Virus record (IMG/VR): IMGVR_UViG_3300031991_000104
Location: 1-27,157 of that record
Source of the DNA: a virus
Lineage: Duplodnaviria > Caudoviricetes
Strand: one strand, 5' to 3'
Length of the DNA: 27,157 bases
Of this stretch, positions 4,423-27,157 are shown in pieces. Within the stretch, counting starts at the first letter, position 1; each line of letters opens with the position of its first letter. The notes beneath the pieces were generated by a model. That model was given only the letters and a program-made list of their open reading frames with translations. It did not search any database and was not told the DNA's origin. Both the position numbers and the translations under genes were made by a program.

Positions 4423-5430
4423 ATGGCTAAACTTCTCGAAACGAGCCAGGTGGGCAAAAAGGAAGATTTGCGCGACGTGATCGCTCTCGTTGACGCAAAG
4501 AAATATCCCGTGTCCTCCATGGCGAAAAAGGGCATGTCGCCCAAAAACACGCTGGTGGAATGGCAGGTGGACGGCTACCCCGATCCCAGCTTCGACGGTG
4601 TGCTCGATGGTGCCGATGTCACCACGCACGAAAACATGGCGGAACAGCGCAAGCGGCTTCAGACGCGCGTGCAGATCTTCCGCCGCTCGCCCATGGTGTC
4701 GCTTCTTTCGGAGGAAGTCTCCGAAGTGGCCGGTGTGGGCAAGAAGAAGGAACTGGCCCGCGCCATCGTGAAGAGCATCGAAATGCTCAAGCGCGACATC
4801 GAGTGCGCCATTTGTTCCGACCGCGAGAGCCAGGCGCAAAGCGGCCTGAATCCCTACCGCCTTCGCGGCCTTGGGGTGTGGGCGCAAAACGGCGCGCAAT
4901 CGGATCTCCCGGTGGACTCCGACTACCGCACGCCCACCGGCAGCATCAACAGCACGGCCACGTCCGCACTCACGGAGGCCGACGTGAACAACGTGGTCGC
5001 CAGCATCTGGGACCAGACCGGCGAGGACAAAACCTACGTGCTTGCGGCCGGACGCACCCTGCGCCAGCGCATCAGCACGTTCACCCAGTATGCGACAGCC
5101 AGCACGAATGTGATGGCGGCAATCCGCACGCTGAATCAGGACGCGAACGAGCGCAAGCTAACCAGCACGATTGACATCCTCGAAGGCGACTTCGGGACCA
5201 TAGAGATCGTGCCCACGCACTGGAACGCTCGCGACAACGCGACCGCCGCCGTGCAGCGCGCCCGCGGGTACCTCATCGACCCGGAATACGTCGAAATCGC
5301 CTGGCACACCACCCCGCGCCGCAAACCCCTGCCGGATCTCGGCGGCGGCCCTCGCGAGCTGGTCTATGCCATCGCGGCCCTGTGCGTGAGCAATCCGCTC
5401 TGCATCGGAAAATTCAACGCCACCAGCTAA
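4423..5430 (+). CDS. Major capsid protein (DUF5309 / SU10-like family)
   Basis: 335 aa with GKKEDLRDVI, TLVEWQVD, TRVQIFRR, EMLKRDIECAICSD and EGDFGTIEIVP motifs characteristic of this HK97-fold MCP family. Confidence 0.88.
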   Translation: MAKLLETSQVGKKEDLRDVIALVDAKKYPVSSMAKKGMSPKNTLVEWQVDGYPDPSFDGVLDGADVTTHENMAEQRKRLQTRVQIFRRSPMVSLLSEEVSEVAGVGKKKELARAIVKSIEMLKRDIECAICSDRESQAQSGLNPYRLRGLGVWAQNGAQSDLPVDSDYRTPTGSINSTATSALTEADVNNVVASIWDQTGEDKTYVLAAGRTLRQRISTFTQYATASTNVMAAIRTLNQDANERKLTSTIDILEGDFGTIEIVPTHWNARDNATAAVQRARGYLIDPEYVEIAWHTTPRRKPLPDLGGGPRELVYAIAALCVSNPLCIGKFNATS

Positions 5431-11105: not shown

Positions 11106-12850
11106 GCGGACGCTACCAGCAGAGCGGCCGGGGACGGCTGGAGGATGCGGCGGTGGTGTCGGATCTGGATTCTGGGTTCGCCGGTGTGGATATGCGGCTG
11201 GACCCGGGGTTGCTTCCTTCGGGGGTGTGCTCGGCAGGGGTGAATTTGGTGTTCCGGCAGGGTGTGGCGGAGCCGCGGAGGGGATTCCAGACGCGGCCAT
11301 GGGCGCAGTTGCTGGGAGTGAGTTTTCCGATTTCGTTTCCGTTTGATTTTACGGAGGAGCTGGGGTTCGGAACGGTGTATGGTGCGGGGGTTTTCTCGGA
11401 TCCGAACGGGCAGGAATGGGCGGTGCTGGCGTGTGAGACGACGGCGTACCAGATCTCTTGGGATGGTCCGGCGCAGGCACTGCGATACCCGAGCGGTGTG
11501 ACGGTGACGGATCGGGTGACGTTTACGCAGGCTTTCAATGTGCTGCTGATGTGGCGGGGTGAGGGGCTGGATCCGCTGGCGGTTTCGACGGGGACGAGTT
11601 TTGGGGAGGAGATCCGGTTCGAGCTGGTGCCGGATGAGACGAATGGGGATTACACGAGCACGATCCCGGATGCTGCGAGGGGGCTGCATTATGGGAACCG
11701 GGTGTGGGTGGGCTATAGGGGCTCGAAGGTGGCGTATTCGGACGTGCTGGCTTACACGCGGTGGGATGGGGCGTTGTCGTCGATCTATGTGAATGATGGG
11801 TCGGATGACCGGCTGCAAGTGCTGGTGGCGTATGGGACGAATGCGATCTTGGCGTTCAAAGATCAATCGATTTTCGCCATCACTGGGGTGTTGCCGTCGC
11901 CTGGGGACACGGGTGCGGTGCAGGTGGTGACGAACGAAAGGGGGACGATTGCGCCGGAATCTGTGGTGCAGGTGGGGAATGATGTGTGGTTTTTGTCGGA
12001 TGATGGAGTGTATGCGATCTCGCAGGCGCTGGAGGGGACGCTGAGAGCGGCGAGTGAGCCGGTGAGTGCGCCGATGGGGCCGCTTTTCCAACGGGTGCAT
12101 TGGGGCCATGCACACAAAGCGGTGGGGACGTTCCATGATGGGAGGTATCTGCTGGCGCTGCCGATTGATGGGGCGGCGCATAATAATGCGATTGCGGTGT
12201 ATGATTTCCAGAACCAGGGATGGGCTGGGTGGTGGGAGTTTGATTTGCTGGATGCGGCGTGGTTTGTGCGGTTGACGGTGGGCGGTCGGAGGCGGCTGGC
12301 GGTGGTGAGTGGCACGGCGATCTCGGGGAATGAGGGTGCGGTGTATGTGCTGGGGGATGACTTTATGGATGAAAGTTTCGGCACGGAATCGGCTGTGGAA
12401 ACGGAGCTGGTGACGCGGGGCTATCTGTGCGGGAGCAATGGGCAGAAGGTTTTCATCGGTGCGGCTGTGGAGGTGGCGACGTGGTATGGTGCGGGGGAAA
12501 TCTCTGCGGTGCGGGATGGGGTGAATGAGGAGGCGGATGCGCAGACGTTCGCGAAGGACCGGACGGTGTACGCGACGTTTGACAAGGGTCCGTATGTTGA
12601 AAGCAATGAGAACGATGATCACGGTGATCCGTATCGGGAGGACTATTCTGTGGTGATCCCGACGGGCGGTTTGCGGCTGGGCTCGGGGGTGTGCCTTGGG
12701 CTGCACCAGACGAGCAGCGAACGGATGCGTGTGCGCCAAAGGGGCAGGCATTTGCAGATCCGTGTGCGGGGCACCCGGGGCCGTGTGGCTGTGCGGGCGG
12801 TGCAGGTGGATGCGCGCGCGGGGGCGGAACCGCTACGGGAGGTTTACTAA
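11102..12850 (+). CDS. Tail tubular protein B / nozzle (P22 gp10-like stabilisation protein, beta-propeller)
   Basis: 582 aa with NRVWV, VAYSD, ILAFKDQSIFAI and 'GTIAPESVVQVGNDVWFLSDDGVYAI...SAPM' propeller blades and the terminal GRHLQIRV strand typical of podoviral nozzle proteins. Confidence 0.8.
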   Translation: MSGRYQQSGRGRLEDAAVVSDLDSGFAGVDMRLDPGLLPSGVCSAGVNLVFRQGVAEPRRGFQTRPWAQLLGVSFPISFPFDFTEELGFGTVYGAGVFSDPNGQEWAVLACETTAYQISWDGPAQALRYPSGVTVTDRVTFTQAFNVLLMWRGEGLDPLAVSTGTSFGEEIRFELVPDETNGDYTSTIPDAARGLHYGNRVWVGYRGSKVAYSDVLAYTRWDGALSSIYVNDGSDDRLQVLVAYGTNAILAFKDQSIFAITGVLPSPGDTGAVQVVTNERGTIAPESVVQVGNDVWFLSDDGVYAISQALEGTLRAASEPVSAPMGPLFQRVHWGHAHKAVGTFHDGRYLLALPIDGAAHNNAIAVYDFQNQGWAGWWEFDLLDAAWFVRLTVGGRRRLAVVSGTAISGNEGAVYVLGDDFMDESFGTESAVETELVTRGYLCGSNGQKVFIGAAVEVATWYGAGEISAVRDGVNEEADAQTFAKDRTVYATFDKGPYVESNENDDHGDPYREDYSVVIPTGGLRLGSGVCLGLHQTSSERMRVRQRGRHLQIRVRGTRGRVAVRAVQVDARAGAEPLREVY

Positions 12851-14526: not shown

Positions 14527-15654
14527 ATGGGTGATACTTACGAACCGCCGGTGCCGCAGCCCATTGCCTACGACCCGGTGATGATGCAGCAGGTGATGGC
14601 GGACAGCGCGGCGACGCAGACGGCCGCCTACGTGGACGGGCAGAAGCAGATGCACCGGCTGCAAATGAAATGGCTGCCAGAGGATTATCCGATGGTGGAA
14701 GGCCTGCGACGGGACAGCGAATTGCTGGACCGGCAGGCGATGATTGATTTTCTGAATCAATACGGTCTGGAAGCCCAGCAGGCCATGCTGGCGAGCAATC
14801 CCGCGCTCGCGAAATCCCTCGGATATGTCGAGAGCATGGCGGATGCCACAAAGCTAACTCCGGAGATCACCGCGGAGCTGGACCGGCAGGCGCTCGAAGG
14901 CATCACGGGAATGGGTGCGCTCACCGCGGAGGAAATGCGCATGAGCGACCAGGCCGCCCGCGAATCCTACGCCGCCCGAGGCATGGTGATGAGCGACCCC
15001 GCCGTGGTGGCCGAAGTAATGAACCGGCAGAGCATGATGGACTCGCGGCTGGCTGAGGACCGCACCTTTGCTTACAGCCGGGAAATGGGGAACCGAAATT
15101 TCGTGCAGTCGAGCACTCAGATCGCGGACGCCACCAGCGCAGGAATGAAGATGCTGGGGATGCCGACCGGCAGCGCGCAGGGCATGAGCAACACCATGGG
15201 CATGGTGTCGGGAGTCCGGACACCGGACCCGGCCGCCACCATGGCCGCCGGGCTGGGCTATTACGGGGACATTCAGGGCTACAACGCGAACATGGAAACG
15301 AGCATGTATAATTCGTACAACAACAATCAGGCGGCGCTGGAGGCCGCACAGTTGCAGGCGGCGGCGTCCGGCGCGGCGGCCAGCTCGGCGGCGAGTTCCT
15401 CCATGATGAGCGCGGGGATCGGGGCGGCCGGTGCCGCAATCGGCGCGGCGGCAGTGGTGTGCTGGGTGGCTCGCGAGGTTTACGGCGCGGCGGATGGACG
15501 CTGGCGGACCTTCCGGGTGTGGCTGTTGCTCACCGCTCCAACTTGGCTGCGACGGGCCTACGTGAGGCACGGCGAGGCCTTCGCGGAAATGATTCAAGGG
15601 CGAGCGGCCGTGAAGGCCCTCTTGCGTCACGCCATGGACACAGTCGCCCGCTGA
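14527..15654 (+). CDS. Internal virion / DNA ejection (pilot-like) protein with C-terminal CWVAREVYG domain
   Basis: ATG 14527 after an A-rich leader. Helical Q/A/M-rich body, Gly/Ala-rich hydrophobic segment (AGIGAAGAAIGAAAVV), then a 64-aa aromatic/basic domain. Position after tail genes matches podoviral ejection proteins. Confidence 0.65.
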   Translation: MGDTYEPPVPQPIAYDPVMMQQVMADSAATQTAAYVDGQKQMHRLQMKWLPEDYPMVEGLRRDSELLDRQAMIDFLNQYGLEAQQAMLASNPALAKSLGYVESMADATKLTPEITAELDRQALEGITGMGALTAEEMRMSDQAARESYAARGMVMSDPAVVAEVMNRQSMMDSRLAEDRTFAYSREMGNRNFVQSSTQIADATSAGMKMLGMPTGSAQGMSNTMGMVSGVRTPDPAATMAAGLGYYGDIQGYNANMETSMYNSYNNNQAALEAAQLQAAASGAAASSAASSSMMSAGIGAAGAAIGAAAVVCWVAREVYGAADGRWRTFRVWLLLTAPTWLRRAYVRHGEAFAEMIQGRAAVKALLRHAMDTVAR

Positions 15655-16802
15655 TGGACAAGCTGACGCTGGACGGTGCGCAAAGGGCGAACACGCCGGA
15701 GGAAACGCTTGGGCGGATCAAACCGTTCTTTCCCGTGGCGGGAATCTCCCGGGTGGCCGACATCACGGGGCTGGACCGCATCGGTATTCCCGTGGCGCTT
15801 TGCATCCGCCCCGACAGCGGCTCGCTCGCGGTGGACAGCGGCAAGGGAATGACGGTGTCGGGAGCCCTGGCCAGCGCGGCCATGGAAGGGATGGAGCGTT
15901 ACGCGGCGGAGGTGGAGGTTTTTGACAGCGAGAGGGGGCCGATCCGAGATTACCGCGAAGTGCGGTTTCCTTTGTTGAAAGGCGCACGGTTGGAATCGGG
16001 GCAGGAGCTGAACTGGGTGGCGGTCCGCGATCTCTTCACTGATGGCGAAATGTGGGTGCCACAGCGTTGCGTAGGGGGTGACATTTATGGCCGGGAACCG
16101 CTGTCGGAACGGGCGTTTTATTCAACGACAAACGGCTTGAGCGCCGGGAACACGCTGGAGGAAGCGGTATGCGGCGGGATCTATGAAGTGATCGAACGGG
16201 ACGCCACTTGCATCGCGCAAAGCCAAATGAACCCGGACCGGGTGGTGACGCTGGAAAGTATCCCCTGGCCATCTGCGCGCGGACTGGTGAAGCAGATCGA
16301 GGCGGCGGGCTGCGGGGTGACGGTGTTCGATTGCCTCTCCGACATCGGGGTTCCGGTGTTCATGGCATGGATCTTCGACAAGAAGGAATCGGGCGTGGGA
16401 GTTTACCGGGGCTACGGGTGCCACCTCTCCGCAGAGATCGCGCTTTGCCGGGCACTCTGCGAAGCGGCGCAGGCCCGTGCGGTAATCGTGGCCGGGGCGC
16501 GGGACGACATCACGCAGGAGCGGCACCTGAACTATTTGCAGGCCAGCGAGCGGAACGACTGGACGGTGTGGGCACTTCCCCAAATCCGGGACATTTCCAC
16601 CGCCCCGGATGGAAGCGGCAAAAGTTTCCGCGAAGACATCGGCCGCCTTATGGAGCAGCTCGAAGTGGCGGGGTTTGCACGGGTGCTTTTGTATGATTTC
16701 CACAGCGCCCTGAATCTTGGAGCGCATGTGGTGCGCATGCTGGTTCCCGGGCTGGAAGGTTATCTCACGCAGTGGCTGCAAGTCGGAGGGCGGGCGAAAT
16801 GA
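15654..16802 (+). CDS. ycaO: YcaO-family ATP-dependent peptide backbone-activating enzyme (TfuA-associated, thioamide-forming type)
   Basis: TPEETL, GISRVADITGLDRIGIPV, GKG.T...A.ASAAMEGMER, TNGLSAGNTLEEAV..GIYEVIERDA, GYGCHL....AL.RALCEAAQAR...AGARDD and VVRMLVPGLE. All hallmark YcaO ATP/Mg-binding motifs are present. ATG overlaps the upstream stop (TGATG). Confidence 0.95.
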   Translation: MDKLTLDGAQRANTPEETLGRIKPFFPVAGISRVADITGLDRIGIPVALCIRPDSGSLAVDSGKGMTVSGALASAAMEGMERYAAEVEVFDSERGPIRDYREVRFPLLKGARLESGQELNWVAVRDLFTDGEMWVPQRCVGGDIYGREPLSERAFYSTTNGLSAGNTLEEAVCGGIYEVIERDATCIAQSQMNPDRVVTLESIPWPSARGLVKQIEAAGCGVTVFDCLSDIGVPVFMAWIFDKKESGVGVYRGYGCHLSAEIALCRALCEAAQARAVIVAGARDDITQERHLNYLQASERNDWTVWALPQIRDISTAPDGSGKSFREDIGRLMEQLEVAGFARVLLYDFHSALNLGAHVVRMLVPGLEGYLTQWLQVGGRAK

Positions 16803-17833
16803 AGGTGGTGTTTCTTGGCCCAAGTCTGGCGCGGGACGCGGCGCTGGACATCCTGCCGGGGGCCATTATCGCGCCCCCTGTAGCGCAAGGTGACATCGCG
16901 AGTATCTGCCGGATGGCAACCCCTCCCGAGGCTATCGGCATTGTGGATGGACTCTTTCGCAAGAGCCTGTCGGTGTGGCACAAGGAAATCCTCTTTGCCC
17001 TCTCGCGCGGGGTGCGCGTGCTGGGTGCGTCGAGCATGGGAGCATTGCGCGCCGTGGAGTGTGAGCCATGGGGAGCGGAGCCGGTGGGCGAGATCGCCGC
17101 ATGGGTGAAGGCCGGGCTCGCCAGTGACGCCGACGTGGCGCTGGCCCACGCCGGGGCGGAGCACGGGTGGCGGGCGTTGAGTGTGCCCATGGTGAATGTG
17201 CTGGCCACGCTAGCGGCTTGCGCGGAGCTGCCCGCCTTTCGGTATCATTCCATCCTCAAAGCAGCGGCCCGGCTTTTCTACGCGGACCGCACCTGGCCTG
17301 GAATCTTCGAGGCGGGGCAATGCACGCCTGCCGAGCGCGAGGTGATCGCGGCAAACCCGCGGGACCAGAAAGCCACGGATGCCCGGGCGATGCTGGGTGA
17401 AATGAGCCGCCCTGCTAAAGGCCGCCACGTGCGGGTGGCAGTCAATATTTTCGAGAACTACGGGGCCGTGCTGCATGGGAACGACGTGCGGATTCCCACG
17501 GCCACGGGTGCCCGCAAGGCGTGGGAGGTGGCGAAACAGAACGCGTGGGCGTTACGTGCTGGCAACGAACGCGTGCTGGCCGTGGAGATGGCGCAGATCC
17601 TCGGCATGGACAAAGATTTGCCGGAGATCCCTTACGACGCCGAAGAGGCCCGCAAGCTCGATTTGCTGCCGCATGAATACCTCCGATTTCGACGCGAGGA
17701 AATGATGCTGGCGCGCGCTGCTGTGTGGGTGAGCGCGACGGACAACGGCCACGGTGACGCCCCCCGGATCCTTTCCCACCTGCGGAGCGCAGGAATTTAC
17801 GACGAGATGAAAAAAGCAAAGTTATGCCCATAG
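16799..17833 (+). CDS. tfuA: TfuA-like protein (YcaO partner for thioamidation)
   Basis: VFLGPSL, PPVAQGDI, IGIVDGLF....SVWHKEIL.AL..GV.V.GASSMGALRAVE, DADVAL.H and LSVPMVNV.ATL are the conserved TfuA core. ATGA overlap with ycaO. Confidence 0.94.
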   Translation: MKVVFLGPSLARDAALDILPGAIIAPPVAQGDIASICRMATPPEAIGIVDGLFRKSLSVWHKEILFALSRGVRVLGASSMGALRAVECEPWGAEPVGEIAAWVKAGLASDADVALAHAGAEHGWRALSVPMVNVLATLAACAELPAFRYHSILKAAARLFYADRTWPGIFEAGQCTPAEREVIAANPRDQKATDARAMLGEMSRPAKGRHVRVAVNIFENYGAVLHGNDVRIPTATGARKAWEVAKQNAWALRAGNERVLAVEMAQILGMDKDLPEIPYDAEEARKLDLLPHEYLRFRREEMMLARAAVWVSATDNGHGDAPRILSHLRSAGIYDEMKKAKLCP

Positions 17834-18741
17834 TTTACAACCCATCAGTGAACGACCGCAGCGGGGAAATCCTCGGAAGCGGGATCGCGGGGGCGGCGCA
17901 GATCAACGCGCAAGGCCAGATGCAGAGCGCGGAGAATCTGTCGCGGGGAATCGCCAGCGCGGGACAGTCCATCGGGCGCGGGATCGAGCAGGCCGGGAGT
18001 ATTTACGCGCAGAACAAGGCTAAGTTGAGCAGCGGCTACGGGAAAATTGATGGGTTCCTTGGTGCTGGTTACATCGCAAAGGAGGAAGCAGATCGGCTCT
18101 CGCAGATCAAAAACCCTGACAAACTTCACGGCGAACTCGCGGTGATTGAGCAGCAGTTTCAAAACGACATGATCCGCAAGCGGCAAGTGGATACGATGAA
18201 TATGCGCTTGATGGAGGAGGAGGCTGGGCGTAAGGGCAGCCGGGTGGGGACGACGACAACGATGGTGGACCCCATCACGGGCCAGAAGGTGGGGGCGTAT
18301 TTTCAGAATGACCGACAGGTCGTGCCCTTCAAAGGCAATGCTCCGGCAGATCAAGGCTTGCAGGGGGTGCGCAAGGTGCAGGTGGGACCGGATGAGTTTA
18401 TTTACACGGACCAGAACGGGAAGCCCCTCAGCCCGAATTTGATCAACGCAAAGCCGCCTGATCCGGTGGCGCAGGCGAAGTTGACGAAGTTGCAGGAGGA
18501 GAAAGCCTATCTCGACGGCGAGGCGGCGAAGGGGCGGGGCGATGCGAAGGATGGGGCGAATTGGTGGCCGTGGTCGGAGACGATCAAGACGCGGCAGGCT
18601 GGCGTGGCGGCGCAGTTGAAGAGCATGGCGGGGGCACCGCTGTATGACACGCCGCAGGCAGTGAAGGCGGCGGTGCGCGCGGGAAAGATCACTCCGGAAG
18701 AGGCCACGGGCATCCTTCGGAGCCAGTTCGGAATGCAGTAA
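17824..18741 (+). CDS. Probable internal virion / ejection protein
   Basis: N-terminal YNPSVNDRSGEILGSGIAGAA...GIASAGQSIGRGI amphipathic Gly-rich helices, Gln/Lys-rich body. Overlaps the tfuA end and precedes the giant protein. Confidence 0.6.
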   Translation: MPIVYNPSVNDRSGEILGSGIAGAAQINAQGQMQSAENLSRGIASAGQSIGRGIEQAGSIYAQNKAKLSSGYGKIDGFLGAGYIAKEEADRLSQIKNPDKLHGELAVIEQQFQNDMIRKRQVDTMNMRLMEEEAGRKGSRVGTTTTMVDPITGQKVGAYFQNDRQVVPFKGNAPADQGLQGVRKVQVGPDEFIYTDQNGKPLSPNLINAKPPDPVAQAKLTKLQEEKAYLDGEAAKGRGDAKDGANWWPWSETIKTRQAGVAAQLKSMAGAPLYDTPQAVKAAVRAGKITPEEATGILRSQFGMQ

Positions 18742-18747
18742 TTTCCC

Positions 18748-21700
18748 ATGACAGCCGAAGAGTTTTTGAATGCACCGGACGAAGCGCCGGTGGTAACTTC
18801 GAAACCAATCAGTCCCACGGGCGGCAGCGGTGTGCCGCCCCTACCGCCCACCACGTCGCCAGGCGTGGAGGGGGCGAAGCCGAGCCCTACGCCGGTGACG
18901 TTTTATTCACTGGGGGCGGACGTGGGCGGGCCGGATGAGACGCAAGACAAGTGGACGAACAAGGGGTTCTCGTCGAAGGGTCCGAATCTCACGCCCGGCG
19001 TGGCGGCCGTGAATGAAAAGAAGTATCCGCTGGGCACGGTGTTGAAGGACACGGACAGTGGCATGGTGTTTCTCGCTACGGACCGGCATGGCAACGAAGA
19101 TCCTAATGTGGTGGACGTTTACGTGGCTCCGGAGAATTACAAGCGCGCGAAGGTGACGCGGAATTTCTCGGTGGTGGGCAAGGTGGATAATATCCCGACG
19201 ACGGCGGAGGGCGTGCGCTCGGCGCTGGCGGCTTTCGGCACGGTGCCCGAGGGGCCGAGCGCGGCGGAGTCGCTGGGGAAGAAGACGGCCAAGCCTGATA
19301 ATGCGGACACGACCGATAAAACGGGCAAGGCCGATTTTATTGATGTGCCGGGGTTGCCGGGCGGAGAGGAAGAGGACGCGGAGAATGAGGGACGCGGAGC
19401 CGCGGGGACGGGAGCGAAGGCGGAGGATTTCCTGAATGAATCCTGGTGGGTGCAGGATGATAAGCTGATGCTCGACCCGAAGAATTTCCGCGATGGGCTC
19501 AAGCAGGCCAAGGCAGCGGGAGTGATTGACGACGAAGCTTTTGCGAAGTTGAGCGAGGATGCGGATAAGGTCGAAGCGGCAGCGAAGGCCCGCGAGGAGT
19601 TGGTGGCAGAGGCCGGGGACAATGCGGCCGCAAAAGCGGCGTTGCATGGTATCGGCAAGGGAAGCGCGATGACGCTGGGCGCATTGGGAGCAGGGGCGGC
19701 GGGGGCATTGGTGGCTCCAGCGGCCGGACCGGCTGCACCGCTGGTGCCGATTGTGACGGGCACGGTGGGGTTGTTTGCGGCGGGGGCGGCGTATGATGCC
19801 GTTTACAAGAAGCTCGCGGATTGGGACGACAGCTACAAGGAAGTGCTGGCCGCGAAGGAACTGGAACCGGGATGGAACGCGGCGGGGGAGATGGCGTTTC
19901 TCGCGCTCCAGCTTCCGGCCAGTGCGGTGAACATGGCGCGGGCGGTGGGCCCGGTGGCGCGGGCAAACGGGACCGGCGCGGCGGTGAAGTTCGGTGCGCA
20001 GGCCGTGGGCGTGGGAGCCGGGACGGCCGCAGTGACGGATACGGGCGTGCGCATTATGCAGCGCGCGGCGGGATACGACGAAGTGCCAGCGCCGAGCGCG
20101 GAGACAGCACTGACAGCGGCAGGGATAGGGGCGCTGACGGCGGGGCTATTCGTGGGGAAGACGCGGTATTCGTTGAAAGACCTTTTCGGCATCGCGAAGC
20201 GACAGGCGGAGGGAAAGAAGCTGTCGGCGGCGGAGACTGAGGCGATGAACGCGGCGGCGCGGGCCGTGGAGCAATTGCAGGGCGAGGGCAACACCGTCAA
20301 GGGCGTGACGGTGGAACAGGCTTCCATGATGGGACGGCCAGAGGTGACGACGCCGACGGTGACAATCGGGCCGGGAGGGAAGGGCGGCGGCGGCAGGGTG
20401 GACTTGAAGCGGTTGGGGCCAGGCGGGGCGCAAGAGCAATTCGAGGGACTGGTGCGCGCCGGGGGCGGGGATGTGGACGCGCCAGCGGGGCGGGCGGTGG
20501 TGCCTGTGCTCGGGAATGGTTTGCCGGAGGGGAGTTTCGCGCCAGCGACAAGCGGGGGGACGGTGCAGAGCGCGGAGGAATTTTTGGCCGCGCCGGCAAC
20601 GGAAGATCCTTTCGCCATTGAGGACGACGGGGTGGAAGAGGGGGAGGGATATGTGGCTGGCGGAGACGAGGAGGCACTGGCAGCAGCCGCGGCGGCGCGC
20701 CAGGCGGAGGCGGATTACCTCGCGGAGATGCAGGGTGACATTGACGAGACGATGCGGGCGGCCCGTGAGCAAAGCGGGAGCGTGGAAATCGCCGATGCCG
20801 TCGAGCAGCTTGGCGGGCTGCCGGGACGGGGCAGCGCATACGAAAAGCCCTACGCCGGGGAACTCCAGATGGTGCGCGAGAACGTGAAGGCGGACAAACG
20901 GATGAAGCTCTTCCGCAAGGACGCGCCCGATCCGGACCGTCTGGTGACTTCGTTGCGGGACATAGGATTCGAGATCGAGGGACCGAATCAGCTTTGGGAT
21001 ATTCTGGACACGCGGTTCCGTGGGAATGTCGAGCATTGGAGCGAACCGAACCGGCAGGATGCTTACTGGCAGGAACGCCACGGCATGATGATGGAGGACG
21101 CGAAGCCGCGCACGGTGCAGGACCTTCCCATGGTGAAGGTGGATGCGCGGGCGGTGAGCGGGCCGGAGGCGGAGACGGCTTATCGTGCGCTGACACCGGC
21201 GCAGTTGCCGGACCGTCCGGTGCGGGTGCAGTTCGTGCGGAGCATCATTGGAAAGTTGAAGGGGCACCACGGTGCAGAACGCATTTTCCAGTTGGTGCCA
21301 CATTTTCAGACGCTGCTGGAAGGCTCGATTCCGATGGACTTCGAGGCGGAACGGAACCCGGTGAAGCATGACAATGTGGTGGGCTTTCAAGACTATCTCG
21401 CAAAGGCGGATATAGGAGGCACGCCAGTCTATGTGCGGTTTTCTGTGCAGCTCTTGAAAACCGGGAGGAAGGCTCCCCGCGGGGCAATGCCGAAGCATGA
21501 ACTTCACAGCGCCTTCGTCAGCGACGTGGCGATGTATGATGAAGCTGGGCGCGTCCTTCACTCCGGCATTAGCACGCCGACGACGGGTGCGCGGCCCAGC
21601 TTCGACAGGAAGCTGGCACAATGGCTGGGGGTAGTCAAGGAACCACAAAAGCCCTACACGGCCGCGCAGACCGCCGAGCGCGGCGATGTGGCGGCGAAGG

Positions 21701-24700
21701 TGCTTGGGACGGCACCAGTGACCAGCGTGGCGCGGGAACTGGCCGTGAAGCCGGGAATGGTGGATGAATTCGCGGCGCAGGAAAAACTGGTGGCGCTCGG
21801 ATGGCGGCGGGAAATGCTCACCAAGGGGAAGGTGGATTTCGTGGGGCGGACGATTAAGAACGCCTACGACCTCGCGCAAGCCGCGCAGGTTTACCGGGAT
21901 CCGCGTTTCGAGACGGTGCGGTGGCTCTTCACGCGAAACGGCAAGGTGGTGGACACTGTGGGCATCACCAGCCGCAATCCTCGTTTTACGATGGTGCTGC
22001 TGCCTGGCCATAGTGTGCAGGATATGGTGGCAATGGCCAGGAAGACGGGCGCGGATGGCGTGTGGCTGCTGCACAATCACCCGAGCGGCGACCCGACACC
22101 GAGCGAAGCAGACCGGCGCATGACGGAGCAGATCGGCCGGGCGGCATTGGCGGCGGATGTGTTCTTTCAGGGCCATGTGGTGATCAACGGCGGCCGGTTT
22201 GCCATGATCACGCCAGACGGTTTCCATGAACTGCACGCCCTCCCGGGCCGGGACGAGCTATTGCAACCGGAAATCGACAGCGAACTGCTCAATCTGCCGG
22301 TGGAGTCCACGGGCCAAGTCGCGGCGGTGGCCGAGGTGTGGGCACGGCTGGCAGCCGACCAGCGTGATGGAGGCGGGCAGGTGACGCTTTTCATACTCGA
22401 CACCAAACGGAAGGTGCGGGCCGTCACCACGGTGCCGTTGGAGTTATTTTTTGATCGGGAAAAATTCTCGGCTTACCTGCATTCGCGGGGCTCCAAGTAT
22501 GGAGTGAGTTTTGCCACGGCTTACTACGATCACCCGGCCCTGCGGGACTGGGTGGGGGATTACATGGGTGAGTATATCCGCGGCGGATTGCTCGACGACG
22601 GGGTGTTGTCTCCACGGGAGACGCTCCGGGAAACCGGGCTGGCGACGCCGGACGTGCCGGACAGTTATTTCGGCGAGAAGTTTTCGAAGTTGGTGCATGC
22701 GGAAGAAGTGCGCGAGGACTCTGCCGGCCGATTGGCGGACATCGCGGTGACGGAGGGGCCGCTGCGGGTGTTGTCGGCTGATGGCAAGAACGTTTACGCC
22801 ACGGTGAAGCTGACCGGGCTGCCGGACATCAAGATTATCGAGATGCCGGAAATGCTGGCGCTCACAAGGCAGATCATGGGCAGCGAGCCGGAGTTGCGCC
22901 GGATGCGCAGCGCGCTGGGGCAATTCGTCGGAGCTGGGCAAGGGCAGATGCGGCTCGACCCGCGAATCTTCGCGGACTCGACCGTGGCGGCGAAAGTGTT
23001 CGCGCACGAGATCGGACACCTCGTGGATTACCTTCCCGACCACACCTTGAAGCGCGGGAACCTCATCGGGCGACTCTACACCTTGAAGCGGCACCTTTCG
23101 GGGACGGCTTTCGGAAGTATTACGGGCATCAAAAATGCGGACATCAAGGCGGAGCTGGAGGGGCTCACGCGGTGGTGGAAACCCTGGGACGACACCGTGG
23201 CGCCGAAGTGGTATAGCGACTATCGCAAGTCGAGCGTGGAGCTTTACGCGGATGCCATCAGCGTGCTTTTCAATAGCCCCGCGGAGTTGAAGGCGCGCGC
23301 GCCGAAGTTCTACAAGGAATTTTTCGCCTGGCTGGACAAGAAGCCCGAGGTGAAAACGGCTTTCTTTGAACTACAGGCTTTCCTGCATAAGCCTTACATG
23401 GAAGTGCTGCGGGCGCGGAGCGGCCGGGTGCGCGAGATGTTCGGCAAAGCGGAGGAAATTTATCTTCGGCATCGCGAGCGGAGGCGGTTGCAAAAGCAGA
23501 CGGTGCGGGGATTCGTGGACACGCTGAAGGATGAGCTTTACGACCGATTCAACCCGGTGGTGCGGCGTCAGGAGGCCGTGGAGAAGGACGGCGGCAAGGT
23601 GGCCGCGGACCTCGACATGCGGAAGCTCTTCGACGAGCACCCGCTCGCGGACAATCTGGTTTACACTTGGCTCTCTCGCGTTTTCGAGCGGGTGGTGAAG
23701 CCGCTGGAGGCCCAAGACATCACGCTGGACGACATGGGGGAATATCTTTTCTTCTCGCGTGTGATGGCGGACCGCGCCGGAATGGCGAACCCACAAGGGC
23801 ACACGGCCGCCACGGCTCGCGCGGCGTTGCTGCGGATGCGGCTCGACCTTGGCAATAAGAAATTCACGCTGTTGGAACGTTCTGCAGAACAGTTTCACGA
23901 CCACGTTTTTGACACGGTGAAGGACGCGGCGGCGGCCGGGCTGATCTCGCAGGAAACTTTCAAAACTGTGATCGAGCCAAACCGGAAAACCTATGCGGCT
24001 TTCCGTCCCATCGAGCATGTGGAAGACTACGTGCCCGCGGGAATCTTCCAACAAATCGGCACGCTGAAAGAGATCGAAAACCCATGGCTCACCACGATCT
24101 TGAAAACCGTGGCGATGCGCCGGGCCATCCAATACAACCGCGCAAAGGTGGGCACTGTGGAGTTCCTCACGGAGTATTTCCCCGACGAGATCCGCGCGGC
24201 CGAAACGCGCTTCGACGGCAAGCGGCAAGTGGTGCTGAAACCCAAGGACAAGGAGCGCGGGCTGATCGAGATCCGGAGGGATGGACAATGGGCGGCCTAC
24301 GAAGTGCCGGGCGATGTGGCGCGGATGTTCGACCGGCTGGACCCGGCGCAGGCTGGCGTCGTGATGAAGGCTCTAAATTTTGTTTTCAAGGCCGGGTTTT
24401 ACAACTTGTGGGTTCGATGGAATCCAGTCTTCCAACTTGCCTATTCGCCGATCCGTGACGCGCAGCGGTATTACGTGAACATGCCGAAGGCTGGCGCGAT
24501 GAAACTGGCGGCGAATTATTTGAAGGCCATCCCGGCTGCGCTGGACCGCATCACCGGGAAGGAAAATCCGCTCATTACGGAAATGTATGAAACCTTCGCG
24601 CTGGCCACGCCTCACGACAGTTACGCCCGCAATCTCACGCGGACGGCCGATGGCTTTGACGAAATCTTGAAGCAATTCCACATCCTTCCGCGGGAGGAGC

Positions 24701-25920
24701 AAAGCGCCTGGCGCAACAATGTGGTGGTGAAGCCCATTGAGAAGCTGCTGCGGTCCATCGAGTTTGCCGGGCAGATTTTCGAGGGTGCCCCGAAGATTAG
24801 CGCTTACAAGGTGCTCACGCGCGATCTTGGCTACTCGGTGAGCGATGCGGCGGCGTATGTGCGGAACTATATCGGGGTGCCGAATTATCTGCGGAAGGGC
24901 CGCCACGCCGTCGCGGCGGGCTCGTTGCTGCCATTCTGGAACGTGGCCACGCAAGGCCTGGCGTCCGATGGGGCGCTGATGACCGGGCGCGGCGGCCGGG
25001 AAGGGAAGAGCGCGGCGAGCTGGTGGTTTCGCTGGGCAATGGCTGGCGGGATCTACGCCATCGTGCAGGCCCTCGCGCGATCCGGACTGCTGGGCGACGA
25101 CGCGGAAGAGCTATTCGGCGGGGTGAGCGATTACGACTCGACGAATTTCACGATCATCCCGCTGGGCACGCAAAGCGGGGGCGATTTCGGCAAGAAGGTG
25201 GTTTACCTCAGAGTTCCCCAGGACGAGATGCACCGCCTGACAAGTGGCTTGCTGAAAAAGTTTATCGAATTGACGGTGAAGCACGCCAAGGACGAGGCGG
25301 TGCGGCCCATAATGAACGACCTAATGGAGCTGGCGGGATTTTCTGGAGGACAATTGCCGGGCGTAAATCCGTCAGTTGGCATCACTTGGAAGTGGATGGA
25401 ATACGCCAACGGGCTCAACCCGTATGACACCTTCCGAGGCCGCCACGTCCTCAGCAACAACGAATGGCTGGCCGGAGGCTGGGCGAGCTTGAAACCCATG
25501 CTGGGCATGACCTTTACCGAATCGGGGCTGGGGAATTTCTATCGTTTCAATCCGGAGACGGACACGACGCTGGAGATGGTGGTGGCAAACGCCCCCATCA
25601 TTCAACGGCTGGTGAAGGTGAGCGACCGAGGGTTTGCCGAGGATCAGCGGGAAACCATCGAACGCGGCCAGGCGGCCGATGCTCGACTCAAGACTCAGAT
25701 GCCCCGCAATGCGCAGCAATTGGCGCAGGAGCACAATTTCCTGCGAACCTTGAGCAAAGCCCGCACTCCGGAACAGGAGGCGCGGTACAAGCAGCTCCGG
25801 GAATGGAACCGCCGCATCTATCAGCCGACGATGGAAGCGGCCGAGGCCCAGCGGGACGCGAAGGTGGACTACCAGCCCACGCTGAACGGGCTGGAGGATG
25901 CGAGCGCGCCGTGGGAGTGA
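18748..25920 (+). CDS. Giant polyvalent internal virion protein (3D domain, TM hairpins, LPD3-like, JAB/RadC, HExxH metallopeptidase, LPD38-like)
   Basis: 2390 aa uninterrupted ORF. VAAVN....PLGT....F.ATDR....VVDVYV (3D), LLHNHPSGDPTPSEAD (JAB/RadC), VFAHEIGHLVD...ELYAD (zincin), PFWNVATQG and YLRVPQ (LPD38-like). Confidence 0.85.
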   Translation: MTAEEFLNAPDEAPVVTSKPISPTGGSGVPPLPPTTSPGVEGAKPSPTPVTFYSLGADVGGPDETQDKWTNKGFSSKGPNLTPGVAAVNEKKYPLGTVLKDTDSGMVFLATDRHGNEDPNVVDVYVAPENYKRAKVTRNFSVVGKVDNIPTTAEGVRSALAAFGTVPEGPSAAESLGKKTAKPDNADTTDKTGKADFIDVPGLPGGEEEDAENEGRGAAGTGAKAEDFLNESWWVQDDKLMLDPKNFRDGLKQAKAAGVIDDEAFAKLSEDADKVEAAAKAREELVAEAGDNAAAKAALHGIGKGSAMTLGALGAGAAGALVAPAAGPAAPLVPIVTGTVGLFAAGAAYDAVYKKLADWDDSYKEVLAAKELEPGWNAAGEMAFLALQLPASAVNMARAVGPVARANGTGAAVKFGAQAVGVGAGTAAVTDTGVRIMQRAAGYDEVPAPSAETALTAAGIGALTAGLFVGKTRYSLKDLFGIAKRQAEGKKLSAAETEAMNAAARAVEQLQGEGNTVKGVTVEQASMMGRPEVTTPTVTIGPGGKGGGGRVDLKRLGPGGAQEQFEGLVRAGGGDVDAPAGRAVVPVLGNGLPEGSFAPATSGGTVQSAEEFLAAPATEDPFAIEDDGVEEGEGYVAGGDEEALAAAAAARQAEADYLAEMQGDIDETMRAAREQSGSVEIADAVEQLGGLPGRGSAYEKPYAGELQMVRENVKADKRMKLFRKDAPDPDRLVTSLRDIGFEIEGPNQLWDILDTRFRGNVEHWSEPNRQDAYWQERHGMMMEDAKPRTVQDLPMVKVDARAVSGPEAETAYRALTPAQLPDRPVRVQFVRSIIGKLKGHHGAERIFQLVPHFQTLLEGSIPMDFEAERNPVKHDNVVGFQDYLAKADIGGTPVYVRFSVQLLKTGRKAPRGAMPKHELHSAFVSDVAMYDEAGRVLHSGISTPTTGARPSFDRKLAQWLGVVKEPQKPYTAAQTAERGDVAAKVLGTAPVTSVARELAVKPGMVDEFAAQEKLVALGWRREMLTKGKVDFVGRTIKNAYDLAQAAQVYRDPRFETVRWLFTRNGKVVDTVGITSRNPRFTMVLLPGHSVQDMVAMARKTGADGVWLLHNHPSGDPTPSEADRRMTEQIGRAALAADVFFQGHVVINGGRFAMITPDGFHELHALPGRDELLQPEIDSELLNLPVESTGQVAAVAEVWARLAADQRDGGGQVTLFILDTKRKVRAVTTVPLELFFDREKFSAYLHSRGSKYGVSFATAYYDHPALRDWVGDYMGEYIRGGLLDDGVLSPRETLRETGLATPDVPDSYFGEKFSKLVHAEEVREDSAGRLADIAVTEGPLRVLSADGKNVYATVKLTGLPDIKIIEMPEMLALTRQIMGSEPELRRMRSALGQFVGAGQGQMRLDPRIFADSTVAAKVFAHEIGHLVDYLPDHTLKRGNLIGRLYTLKRHLSGTAFGSITGIKNADIKAELEGLTRWWKPWDDTVAPKWYSDYRKSSVELYADAISVLFNSPAELKARAPKFYKEFFAWLDKKPEVKTAFFELQAFLHKPYMEVLRARSGRVREMFGKAEEIYLRHRERRRLQKQTVRGFVDTLKDELYDRFNPVVRRQEAVEKDGGKVAADLDMRKLFDEHPLADNLVYTWLSRVFERVVKPLEAQDITLDDMGEYLFFSRVMADRAGMANPQGHTAATARAALLRMRLDLGNKKFTLLERSAEQFHDHVFDTVKDAAAAGLISQETFKTVIEPNRKTYAAFRPIEHVEDYVPAGIFQQIGTLKEIENPWLTTILKTVAMRRAIQYNRAKVGTVEFLTEYFPDEIRAAETRFDGKRQVVLKPKDKERGLIEIRRDGQWAAYEVPGDVARMFDRLDPAQAGVVMKALNFVFKAGFYNLWVRWNPVFQLAYSPIRDAQRYYVNMPKAGAMKLAANYLKAIPAALDRITGKENPLITEMYETFALATPHDSYARNLTRTADGFDEILKQFHILPREEQSAWRNNVVVKPIEKLLRSIEFAGQIFEGAPKISAYKVLTRDLGYSVSDAAAYVRNYIGVPNYLRKGRHAVAAGSLLPFWNVATQGLASDGALMTGRGGREGKSAASWWFRWAMAGGIYAIVQALARSGLLGDDAEELFGGVSDYDSTNFTIIPLGTQSGGDFGKKVVYLRVPQDEMHRLTSGLLKKFIELTVKHAKDEAVRPIMNDLMELAGFSGGQLPGVNPSVGITWKWMEYANGLNPYDTFRGRHVLSNNEWLAGGWASLKPMLGMTFTESGLGNFYRFNPETDTTLEMVVANAPIIQRLVKVSDRGFAEDQRETIERGQAADARLKTQMPRNAQQLAQEHNFLRTLSKARTPEQEARYKQLREWNRRIYQPTMEAAEAQRDAKVDYQPTLNGLEDASAPWE

Positions 25921-25924
25921 GGAT

Positions 25925-27157
25925 TCACAGCGCCTCAATGGTGTGAAGTTTCAAGAGATCGTAATAGTGATCCATCGTCGTCTTGATGTCCTGATGTCGG
26001 AGGAGCTTTGACGCGGTTTCGATGCCGTGTTTCTGAGCGATGATAGAGCCCCATTGCTTCCGCAGCTCGTAAACGCCCTTGATGCGATCTGGGAGATGGC
26101 GGCGCACGAAGGCATTCACGCAGTTGTTTGCACCGCGATGGCGGTCCGTGGCAGTGCCATGCAGCACGAACCCGCCCGGCCCCTTCACTGGCTTGCCGCT
26201 GGGCGCAAATTGTTCGAGAAGGCTGGCGTACAAATCGCGCGCAACGGGGACCTCGCCGGAGGTGCCTTTCGGGCTCCAGTAATCGCGCTCGACAAGGGAG
26301 ATCATTAAGCGTCCGTCCCGCTCGACAAACCAATCCCAACGGAGGTTTTCGACTTCGACGTTGCGCAGGCCGCATCGGCGAATCAGCCAGTAGGTCGCCC
26401 ATGCGTTGCGCCATTGAGCGGGGTAAATGTAGTTCCCTCCCATGCGACGGCGTGGGCCGGTCTGCGGGCGCTCGTGCCACCGTGCCAGGCGGAGCATGCC
26501 AGCGGCTTTCTGGTCCATGGTGTCGAGCACGGCCTGCGGGATCTGGCGATAGGTCTTGTCCGATTTGTCCTTGAGGAAGGAGACGGACAGCCAGTCAGAA
26601 ATGGCGACGTCATCAAGGGCGAGTTCGCGATAAAATTCCCTGGCCATTCGGGCGAAAATGGAGCGGGCGGAGCGCATGATGGCATTCACCGTGGAGGGTG
26701 TGCGAACGGGCTTGCCGGGATGATCAGCGGGCCATTTTGTGCCGTCCCGGAAGGCTTGCATGACTTCGGCGGAAAGGTTGTTGACCCGCAGCGCCCGTGC
26801 GCGCTGGGAGTCGTCCAAGATGCCGGACCCCTCGGCGACGACGATGAGGAAATTCCGGGCGACAATGGCGGACGTAGCGATGCGCGAGGATGCCAAGTAG
26901 GTATCCACCAGCTTGCCGCAGGTGGGGCTGTCGTCGCGCAGCTTGGGCACGGTGTGAAACAAGCCTTCCAGGGCTTTGTCGCGCATGCCGTTGGCGATCC
27001 GTTGGGCGGTGCGGGAATCGGGTGAGCCGGTCGAGCGGTTCACCTGTTTCGTGCGGATGATCGTGGGATTGCGAGCGTCCTTTTCCTTCACGCGAAAGTT
27101 CGCGTAGAAAACGCTCTTGCCAGCGGGGATGTAGATATTTACGTTGCGCGCACTCAT
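25925..27157 (-). CDS. int: Tyrosine recombinase / phage integrase
   Basis: CGLRNVEVENLRW (catalytic R), SPKG (K), YELRK (H-x-x-R box with H replaced by Y), LLRHQDIKTTMDHY (H and catalytic Y). N-terminal arm-binding-like 'FYANFRV...RSTG.....A' segment. Confidence 0.9.
   Translation of the reverse strand: MSARNVNIYIPAGKSVFYANFRVKEKDARNPTIIRTKQVNRSTGSPDSRTAQRIANGMRDKALEGLFHTVPKLRDDSPTCGKLVDTYLASSRIATSAIVARNFLIVVAEGSGILDDSQRARALRVNNLSAEVMQAFRDGTKWPADHPGKPVRTPSTVNAIMRSARSIFARMAREFYRELALDDVAISDWLSVSFLKDKSDKTYRQIPQAVLDTMDQKAAGMLRLARWHERPQTGPRRRMGGNYIYPAQWRNAWATYWLIRRCGLRNVEVENLRWDWFVERDGRLMISLVERDYWSPKGTSGEVPVARDLYASLLEQFAPSGKPVKGPGGFVLHGTATDRHRGANNCVNAFVRRHLPDRIKGVYELRKQWGSIIAQKHGIETASKLLRHQDIKTTMDHYYDLLKLHTIEAL

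Follow-up and report, generated by a model that had tools for sequence, protein, structure and literature searches.

The locus and its enzymes

The 27,157-base provirus record IMGVR_UViG_3300031991_000104 (the window, that is, the whole stretch of DNA analysed, which is 65% complete with the remaining third of the genome outside the record) carries a ycaO and a tfuA gene between two genes whose products, EJ1 and EJ2, are probable DNA-ejection proteins, and we propose, with a probability of roughly two in three, that the Ala-rich tail of EJ1 would be the target of thioamidation by the YcaO-TfuA pair. EJ1 (14527..15654, + strand), a 375-residue probable internal virion protein encoded after a tail-fibre gene and the likely substrate, has near its C-terminus a hydrophobic stretch of small residues, after which comes a terminal 64-residue domain, here called the CW domain. 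The Ala/Val-rich residues 300-311 (15424..15459, +), representing the last ~12 residues before this domain and having an Ala/Val/Ser/Thr fraction of 0.75, constitute the predicted thioamidation site owing to the co-variation of such tails with YcaO among relatives, while the CW domain itself (15460..15654, +), which begins Cys312-Trp-Val-Ala-Arg, is predicted to be removable, as the closest homologues lack it, most of them stopping at its start, and its Cys is invariant. The enzymes are encoded directly downstream by ycaO (15654..16802, +; 382 aa), specifying a TfuA-associated type of enzyme that activates amides with ATP, and tfuA (16799..17833, +; 344 aa), and these are followed by EJ2 (17824..18741, +; 305 aa), a less likely substrate, whose N-terminus has homologues behind tfuA in three other loci (L001, L002 and L021).

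An earlier sequence-only reading of this stretch had described overlaps between all four genes and a lack of room for a separate promoter or terminator. Both descriptions hold: EJ1 and ycaO overlap by 1 nt (TGATG), ycaO and tfuA by 4 nt (ATGA) and tfuA and EJ2 by 10 nt, and between positions 12500 and 19500 there were 0 promoter-like sites on the + strand and 3 terminator-like sites, as compared to 4.9 expected from shuffles. The GC content at third codon positions of the pair (0.755 and 0.759) falls within the 0.73-0.81 spanned by the virion genes on either side. In a public DNA run, possibly that of the source sample, contigs 100% identical to the window were present, one covering EJ1-ycaO and one tfuA-EJ2, and the ycaO/tfuA junction was crossed by none of the 100%-matching contigs of that run.

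That both genes are full length with intact motifs, as had also been claimed, was established by profile searches and residue conservation. YcaO matches PF02624 with 224 bits over profile positions 1-325 (full length) and TfuA matches PF07812 with 104 bits over positions 1-119, both above the Pfam cut-off. The best Protein Data Bank (PDB) match of YcaO is the methanogen protein MJ1094 (6pe3, E 1.6e-29) and the best solved relative of TfuA is 6xp8 (E 2.8e-22), to which the TfuA structure model aligns with a Z of 26.6 and an rmsd of 1.9 A over 203 residues. Residues E78, E81, E178, E181, R182, D183, E270 and Q273 are invariant across 43 YcaOs, with R82 and N160 nearly so, and all ten are identical in MJ1094; we take them to be the ATP/Mg-binding motifs. 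In TfuA, two residues, S79 and K191, are the same in all 25 TfuAs compared, their correspondence to catalytic residues being putative, and the core (residues 1-208) is followed by a helical C-terminal extension of ~130 aa which aligns with long TfuAs of phages and bacteria. The idea that this extension is SurA-like gained no support, there being no SurA-like family match and no usable Atlas match.

With respect to characterized subfamilies, YcaO scores 223 bits against TIGR03266 (cut-off 365) and TfuA 135 against NF033432 (cut-off 235), while YcaO reaches 49 bits against NF040716, the E. coli type (cut-off 700), and 139 against TIGR03604, the azoline type (cut-off 219). A Pro-rich C-terminus and an E1-like partner or fusion are features of azoline-forming YcaOs. 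The window YcaO indeed ends without a Pro-rich segment, as the sequence-only reading had noticed, having no Pro-x-Pro and no Pro among its last 12 residues, and Pro-x-Pro within the last 10 residues was found in 2 of the 43 aligned YcaOs. The pair is an intact TfuA-associated YcaO system, for which thioamide formation is the likely predicted activity judged from its sequence.

According to the available parts of the papers cited here and below, YcaO and TfuA are both required for the thioglycine of McrA (PMC5589413), thiostreptamide S4 likewise depends on both for its thioamides, including those of a Val-Met-Ala stretch (PMC8153245), and a thiocarboxylated ThiS carrier is hydrolysed by TfuA (cited in PMC13063428 and PMC8153245). 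The phage pair resembles the methanogen McrA system in the adjacency of ycaO and tfuA, in the best PDB matches of both proteins, in the lack of a Pro-rich YcaO end and, as predicted, in having a protein as substrate, but differs in that it scores below the equivalog cut-offs, lies outside the methanogen clade, possesses the ~130-aa TfuA extension and has no MCR context. The E. coli YcaO thioamidates ribosomal protein uL16 with no TfuA partner (PMC13063428); it would share with the phage YcaO the modification of a full-size protein, whereas the phage enzyme belongs to a different subfamily and has a TfuA partner.

Composition of the EJ1 tail and presence of YcaO

Scans of viral contigs with single YcaO and TfuA proteins gave no matches, and viral YcaO loci were found with the eight closest YcaOs aligned as the query. 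This query returned 29 loci, of which 25 are close relatives with 30-51% identity and near-copies among them. The remaining four, L026-L029, carry distant YcaOs without tfuA on four viral contigs, with two in tandem in L026, and were left outside the 25-locus analysis. tfuA lies next to ycaO in 22 of the 25 loci, the other 3 stopping at a contig edge, and an EJ1-type gene is directly upstream of ycaO in 22 of the 25, 19 with the CW domain and 3 without. The pair beside an ejection-type gene is thus recurrent, and not the one-off insertion that the sequence-only reading had named as its possible refutation. The same reading had placed the pair within the virion operon, which stands for these 22 loci; in L009, L013 and L020, however, it is separate from the virion genes, and as it lies on the strand opposite the flanking genes in these three records (C1:16981-17901 of genome G002 in the case of L013) it needs a promoter of its own. 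In L005-L007 (records 31-75% complete) the EJ1 before the pair has a terminal Ala run and lacks the CW domain, and there is no PP-loop gene beside it.

The composition of EJ1 immediately before the CW domain was expressed as a tail score, defined as the Ala/Val/Ser/Thr fraction of the last 12 residues before that domain. A blind sample of 121 CW-domain loci, taken from 9/64 parts of the collection and chosen regardless of YcaO, contained 118 records which were searched for YcaO (L159, L160 and L214 being excluded), and YcaO was present in 2 of the 118, with tails scoring 0.83 and 0.75; 1 and 2, respectively, of 98 negatives equalled or exceeded these scores. The score was 0.76 across 15 dereplicated YcaO-linked tails as compared to 0.34 in the 98 without YcaO, with an area under the curve (AUC) of 0.98. 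L022 is absent from the 15-tail set as the motif scan missed it, and its tail fits the same pattern.

A more informative set was provided by EJ1 family 1, comprising 104 loci identified by a scan for a motif of the EJ1 body, again regardless of YcaO, with 97 readable tails (7 were cut or unparsed). The pair is optional in this family, being present in 15 of the 104 records. All 14 readable YcaO-positive tails score 0.58-0.92, while 82 of the 83 YcaO-negative tails score at most 0.50, the exception being a 4.6-kb record which ends inside the CW domain; many of the negatives are incomplete records, and YcaO is absent in 22 of 24 records which are at least 90% complete. As the cassette carries the tail and the CW domain along when it moves, the CW-domain tree was replaced by one built on the EJ1 body. 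On this 62-row tree the pair changes 9 times, and the independent pairs all differ in the same direction (7/7, p 0.016, with the threshold set post hoc). The signal is local, with an AUC of 1.00 for the last 12 residues as compared to 0.51 for the preceding 12. In family 2 (46 loci) the 3 YcaO records, all scoring 0.58, form one near-identical group that was already known. The window EJ1 itself (0.75) nests among CW-less homologues which score 0.33-0.50, and viral contigs yielded no member of its family.

A number of observations weigh against the proposal that the tail is the target. The score was picked from four compositions and five lengths after the first set had been seen, and then fixed, and the 0.55 cut was set after the family 1 values had been seen. 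On the CW-domain tree the YcaO label needs just 2 changes, so that rows are non-independent, and 10 of the 15 family 1 positives were already among the original alignment-found YcaO loci. The closest relatives of the window proteins (EJ1 P0122-P0128, YcaO P0002-P0008) are without readable gene context, and EJ1 has no direct match to any ejection-protein family. Ala-rich tails also occur without YcaO, in L183 (0.67, 100% complete), in L422 (0.58, 99% complete, with a PP-loop gene next) and in the incomplete records L246 (0.83), L156 (0.75) and L241 (0.67). Furthermore, the tail adjoins the cassette, and the 7 contrasts reflect exchanges of linked DNA. EJ2 also differs with YcaO, albeit more weakly (AUC 0.87 for the best of 50 windows), a difference that is read as linkage.

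These points of linkage, namely that the tail borders the cassette and that the CW-domain tree requires 2 changes only, are what an alternative would build on in which the substrate of thioamidation is EJ2, a different virion protein or one of the host's, and the Ala tail is no more than linked DNA; it gains from the three records in which the pair is a separate unit among other genes and from the known protein substrates, McrA and uL16, both being cellular in the available parts of the literature. Linkage could explain part of the co-variation between tail and YcaO. Complete genome G002, in contrast, has kept its Ala tail although the pair lies ~16 kb from EJ1 on the other strand, and its CW domain is of the type of its YcaO-less sisters, while G056 (98% complete), whose EJ1 is 74% identical to that of G002, has no YcaO and a Gly/Leu/Phe tail. 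The EJ1 of a YcaO-less complete phage, 74% identical to that of a YcaO-bearing one, differs from it most in the tail and the CW domain. Ala tails are, moreover, kept across YcaOs which are just 30-45% identical, and the Ala content of the first 60 residues of EJ2 is 0.20 with YcaO and 0.20 without. Because of the G002/G056 contrast, the Ala tails across divergent YcaOs and the Ala-ended peptides of bacteria (below), linkage alone is disfavoured, and we consider a target other than EJ1 unlikely. The sequence-only reading had favoured one of the phage's own proteins as the target; the co-variation of the tail agrees that a phage protein is likeliest, and narrows that suggestion to the C-terminal Ala-rich stretch of EJ1.

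Selection and descent of the pair

Purifying selection acts on relatives of the pair, as dN/dS among them is 0.03-0.10 for YcaO and 0.06-0.27 for TfuA (from 8 of 10 pairs for each gene, the other 2 having reached saturation), values which were obtained from relatives as the window genes have no close enough partner; the dN/dS check proposed with the earlier reading thus pointed, for these relatives, to selection and not to its relaxation. In a 180-row tree the window YcaO falls in a 59-row clade (SH-aLRT 97) consisting of 21 viral rows and 38 rows of unknown context, with no row from a named cell genome. That the pair is inert cargo, or the decaying remnant of a chromosomal cluster for peptides that are made on ribosomes and modified after translation (RiPPs), might be thought from its being optional (15/104 records) and from ycaO being in two pieces in G140, but the purifying selection, the motif residues invariant across 43 YcaOs and the depth of a clade to which viruses contribute 21 rows and named cell genomes none make this highly improbable. 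The split in G140 (L283) is a frameshift or an assembly error, and ycaO is intact in the near-identical L311 and L312. The pair is an optional, mobile cassette which is recurrent and selected in phage virion operons.

A second viral YcaO group (L023-L025 and L168) is separate from the window clade in the 180-row tree, and in a 46-row tree it groups with loci carrying Nif11-like precursors. An AU test against a single viral YcaO clade gave p 0.025, and Ala tails precede YcaO in both viral clades, which suggests two captures of the pair by viruses; long branches may contribute to this picture. Among annotated phages (50,697 records) there was one weak YcaO match, of the E. coli type.

The phylogeny corrects the sequence-only reading in part: the window YcaO lies outside the methanogen clade and in the deep clade with the viral rows, and the bacterial relatives of the pair belong to clusters of the RiPP type that have Nif11-like precursors. 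Nif11-like precursors are present in bacterial TfuA clusters (PMC8120280). When 63 metagenome and genome loci were inspected by eye, 7 encoded a short peptide immediately upstream of ycaO; over their final 12 residues these bacterial-type peptides score 0.58-1.0, and 6 of the 7 match Nif11-leader models weakly, below cut-offs. Uncharacterised bacterial-type clusters with a Nif11-like precursor with an Ala-rich end, ycaO and a long tfuA were seen in L035, L037-L039, L043, L047, L074 and L078, the last of which (Azospirillum) has a 418-aa Ala/Ser repeat precursor. Bacterial TfuA-YcaO RiPP clusters (thioviridamide, thiostreptamide S4 and the Nif11-like) share with the phage locus the order substrate gene-ycaO-tfuA, the small-residue C-terminal stretch and a long TfuA, and they are its nearest cellular-type kin in the trees. 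The phage locus differs in that it has neither a short precursor or leader nor genes for a protease, a transporter or further tailoring, and the probable virion protein encoded upstream of its ycaO is 375 aa long and carries the CW domain at its C-terminus. Given that the bacterial relatives are clusters of the RiPP type in which a Nif11-like precursor is present, EJ1 itself may, by analogy, play the precursor role.

From the same resemblance of the tail to Nif11-like precursor ends it could be argued that EJ1 is a carrier from which the thioamidated tail is excised as a RiPP-like peptide directed against host or competitor cells, all the more so as thioamitide cores bear thioamides on Val, Met and Ala in the available literature. 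The window, however, encodes no protease, transporter or other tailoring gene, as had been noticed before and as a Pfam scan of its 24 ORFs now confirms for this 65% complete record, and no Nif11-type precursor (TIGR03798) was detected in 5 records, namely the window and 4 complete relatives. Since the same hydrophobic end is found in YcaO-less phages, for which a structural role is indicated, a released peptide is improbable, and modification of a tail that stays part of EJ1 is preferred.

The slot behind EJ1 and neighbouring genes

The assignment of EJ1 as a DNA-ejection protein is probable and rests on gene order and shared architecture. EJ1 and EJ2 have no Pfam or PHROG family match and none in NCBIfam above cut-off, and profiles of the EJ1 families matched no PDB chain. 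phrog_4287, 'DNA ejection protein', is matched by 8 of 41 other CW-domain proteins and not by the window EJ1. The seven closest EJ1 homologues are without the CW domain, and five of them stop at about its start point. The CW-domain motif occurs in an estimated ~910 viral stretches, the Cys is invariant, and the domain is all-helical in a structure model (pLDDT about 90). A fold search gave a best Z of 4.4 with no solved match prominent, and in BFVD two uncultured phage proteins. Among annotated phages the CW domain was found in the cultured phage HMO-2011 only, in a hypothetical protein (L270:7102-9222, phage1322_25). The domain serves other proteins besides EJ1: three tandem Pro-rich proteins at L159:2088-4100 each have a terminal CW domain with no hydrophobic tail, and in L199 and L260 acidic stretches replace the hydrophobic tail before it. 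NF041770 (CFI-box-CTERM), a family for which a literature search returned 0 papers, matches 8 of 16 CW members weakly (best E 2.5e-4) and does not match the window copy.

A Peptidase_S74 chaperone domain, of a kind that removes itself, occupies the CW position in one member of family 2 (L423:255-635, - strand). This likeness, together with the weak CFI-box-CTERM matches, points to a CW domain that would itself be self-removing, although the CW domain differs from both in its all-helical model and its self-cleavage is predicted from sequence. In family 1 the next gene encodes a PP-loop protein of ~280 aa from the PAPS-reductase family in 46 of 46 CW-less genes whose neighbour could be read (for example L279:4671-5513), as compared to 0 of 26 CW-bearing genes, where ycaO (13) or EJ2 (13) is next. 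In family 2 the PP-loop gene is next in 36 of 38 CW-less genes, the other 2 being at a contig edge. A search of whole records with one PP-loop protein, which distant versions could escape, was positive in 3 controls lacking the CW domain and in 0 of 39 records that have it. We infer that the end of EJ1 is a processed site and that the PP-loop gene in this slot likely matures the EJ1 C-terminus and does not serve sulfur metabolism, and the slot data thus suggest that phage 'PAPS reductase' genes found here mature a virion protein. Whether podophage-like viruses possess a swappable maturation slot behind an ejection gene, filled by a CW or S74 domain, by a mislabelled PP-loop ATPase or by a RiPP-derived pair captured perhaps twice, yielding a virion with a sulfur-backbone helix, we regard as an evenly balanced question.

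The mutually exclusive, maturation-type devices of this slot raise an alternative in which the pair acts on the EJ1 end by other chemistry (activation of a scissile bond, or formation of a thioacid, amidine or ring) in place of the PP-loop enzyme, and L005-L007, where the pair occurs with neither a CW domain nor an adjacent PP-loop gene, fit such a role. The CW domain is, however, also kept in 19 of the 22 linked loci, so that the pair adds to it, the shift in composition covers ~12 residues and not a single bond, and TfuA-paired YcaOs form thioamides in the available literature. We therefore consider other chemistry doubtful, slightly more so than another target. A complex prediction of YcaO with EJ1 residues 242-375 scored 0.01, giving no answer, and was not used either way.

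With thioamidation of the EJ1 tail as the preferred reading, YcaO would activate a backbone amide with ATP and TfuA would deliver sulfide from a thiocarboxylated ThiS-like carrier. None of 18 phage records bearing YcaO contained ThiS, and the ORFs of the 65% complete window showed no gene resembling ThiS, for which reason the carrier or free sulfide would be supplied by the host. One or more backbone thioamides would be placed in EJ1 residues ~300-311, subsequent removal of the CW domain would leave the modified stretch as the mature C-terminus, and the modified EJ1 would be packaged and act during ejection. YcaO-TfuA may thus be an added modification requiring an Ala-rich version of the EJ1 end, derived from RiPP clusters with the Nif11-like precursor replaced by EJ1, and the tail, CW domain, ycaO and tfuA would travel as one cassette. 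The purpose, the least supported step, may be tuning or protecting a hydrophobic helix which enters the host envelope at infection. Tail and enzymes co-vary, and the genes are intact and conserved, while thioamide formation is a likely prediction from sequence and the presence of its product in virions a tentative one.

The enzymes are of a known kind, whereas the substrate class and the setting are new. Backbone thioamidation is described, in the available parts of the literature, for two proteins (McrA and uL16) and for RiPPs, with no virus among them. A literature search combining either enzyme or the modification with viral terms returned no such system by title or start of abstract, in a collection that covers few subscription papers, and 'phage' does not occur in the available texts of PMC13063428, PMC5589413 and PMC8120280, the supplements of the last of which lie outside this coverage and could list prophage loci. 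If true, the modification would be the first backbone thioamidation known in a virus and would define a new substrate class in which natural-product enzymes have been recruited to the maturation of virions. The likely target has been confined to ~12 residues, and natural pairs with and without the enzymes exist at 74% identity.

Elsewhere in the window, an SU10-type major capsid protein (4423..5430, +; PF17236, E 2e-44; phrog_1328) marks the locus as phage, Pfam and PHROG scans revealed a lysin and the tail-fibre-like gene, and a tyrosine integrase (25925..27157, -; phrog_1, E 1.4e-12) lies at the provirus end. Downstream of EJ2, a large polyvalent-type protein of 2390 aa (18748..25920, +) contains LPD3 and RadC-like JAB domains according to a Pfam scan, and has a Gly/Ala hydrophobic stretch at residues 305-323.

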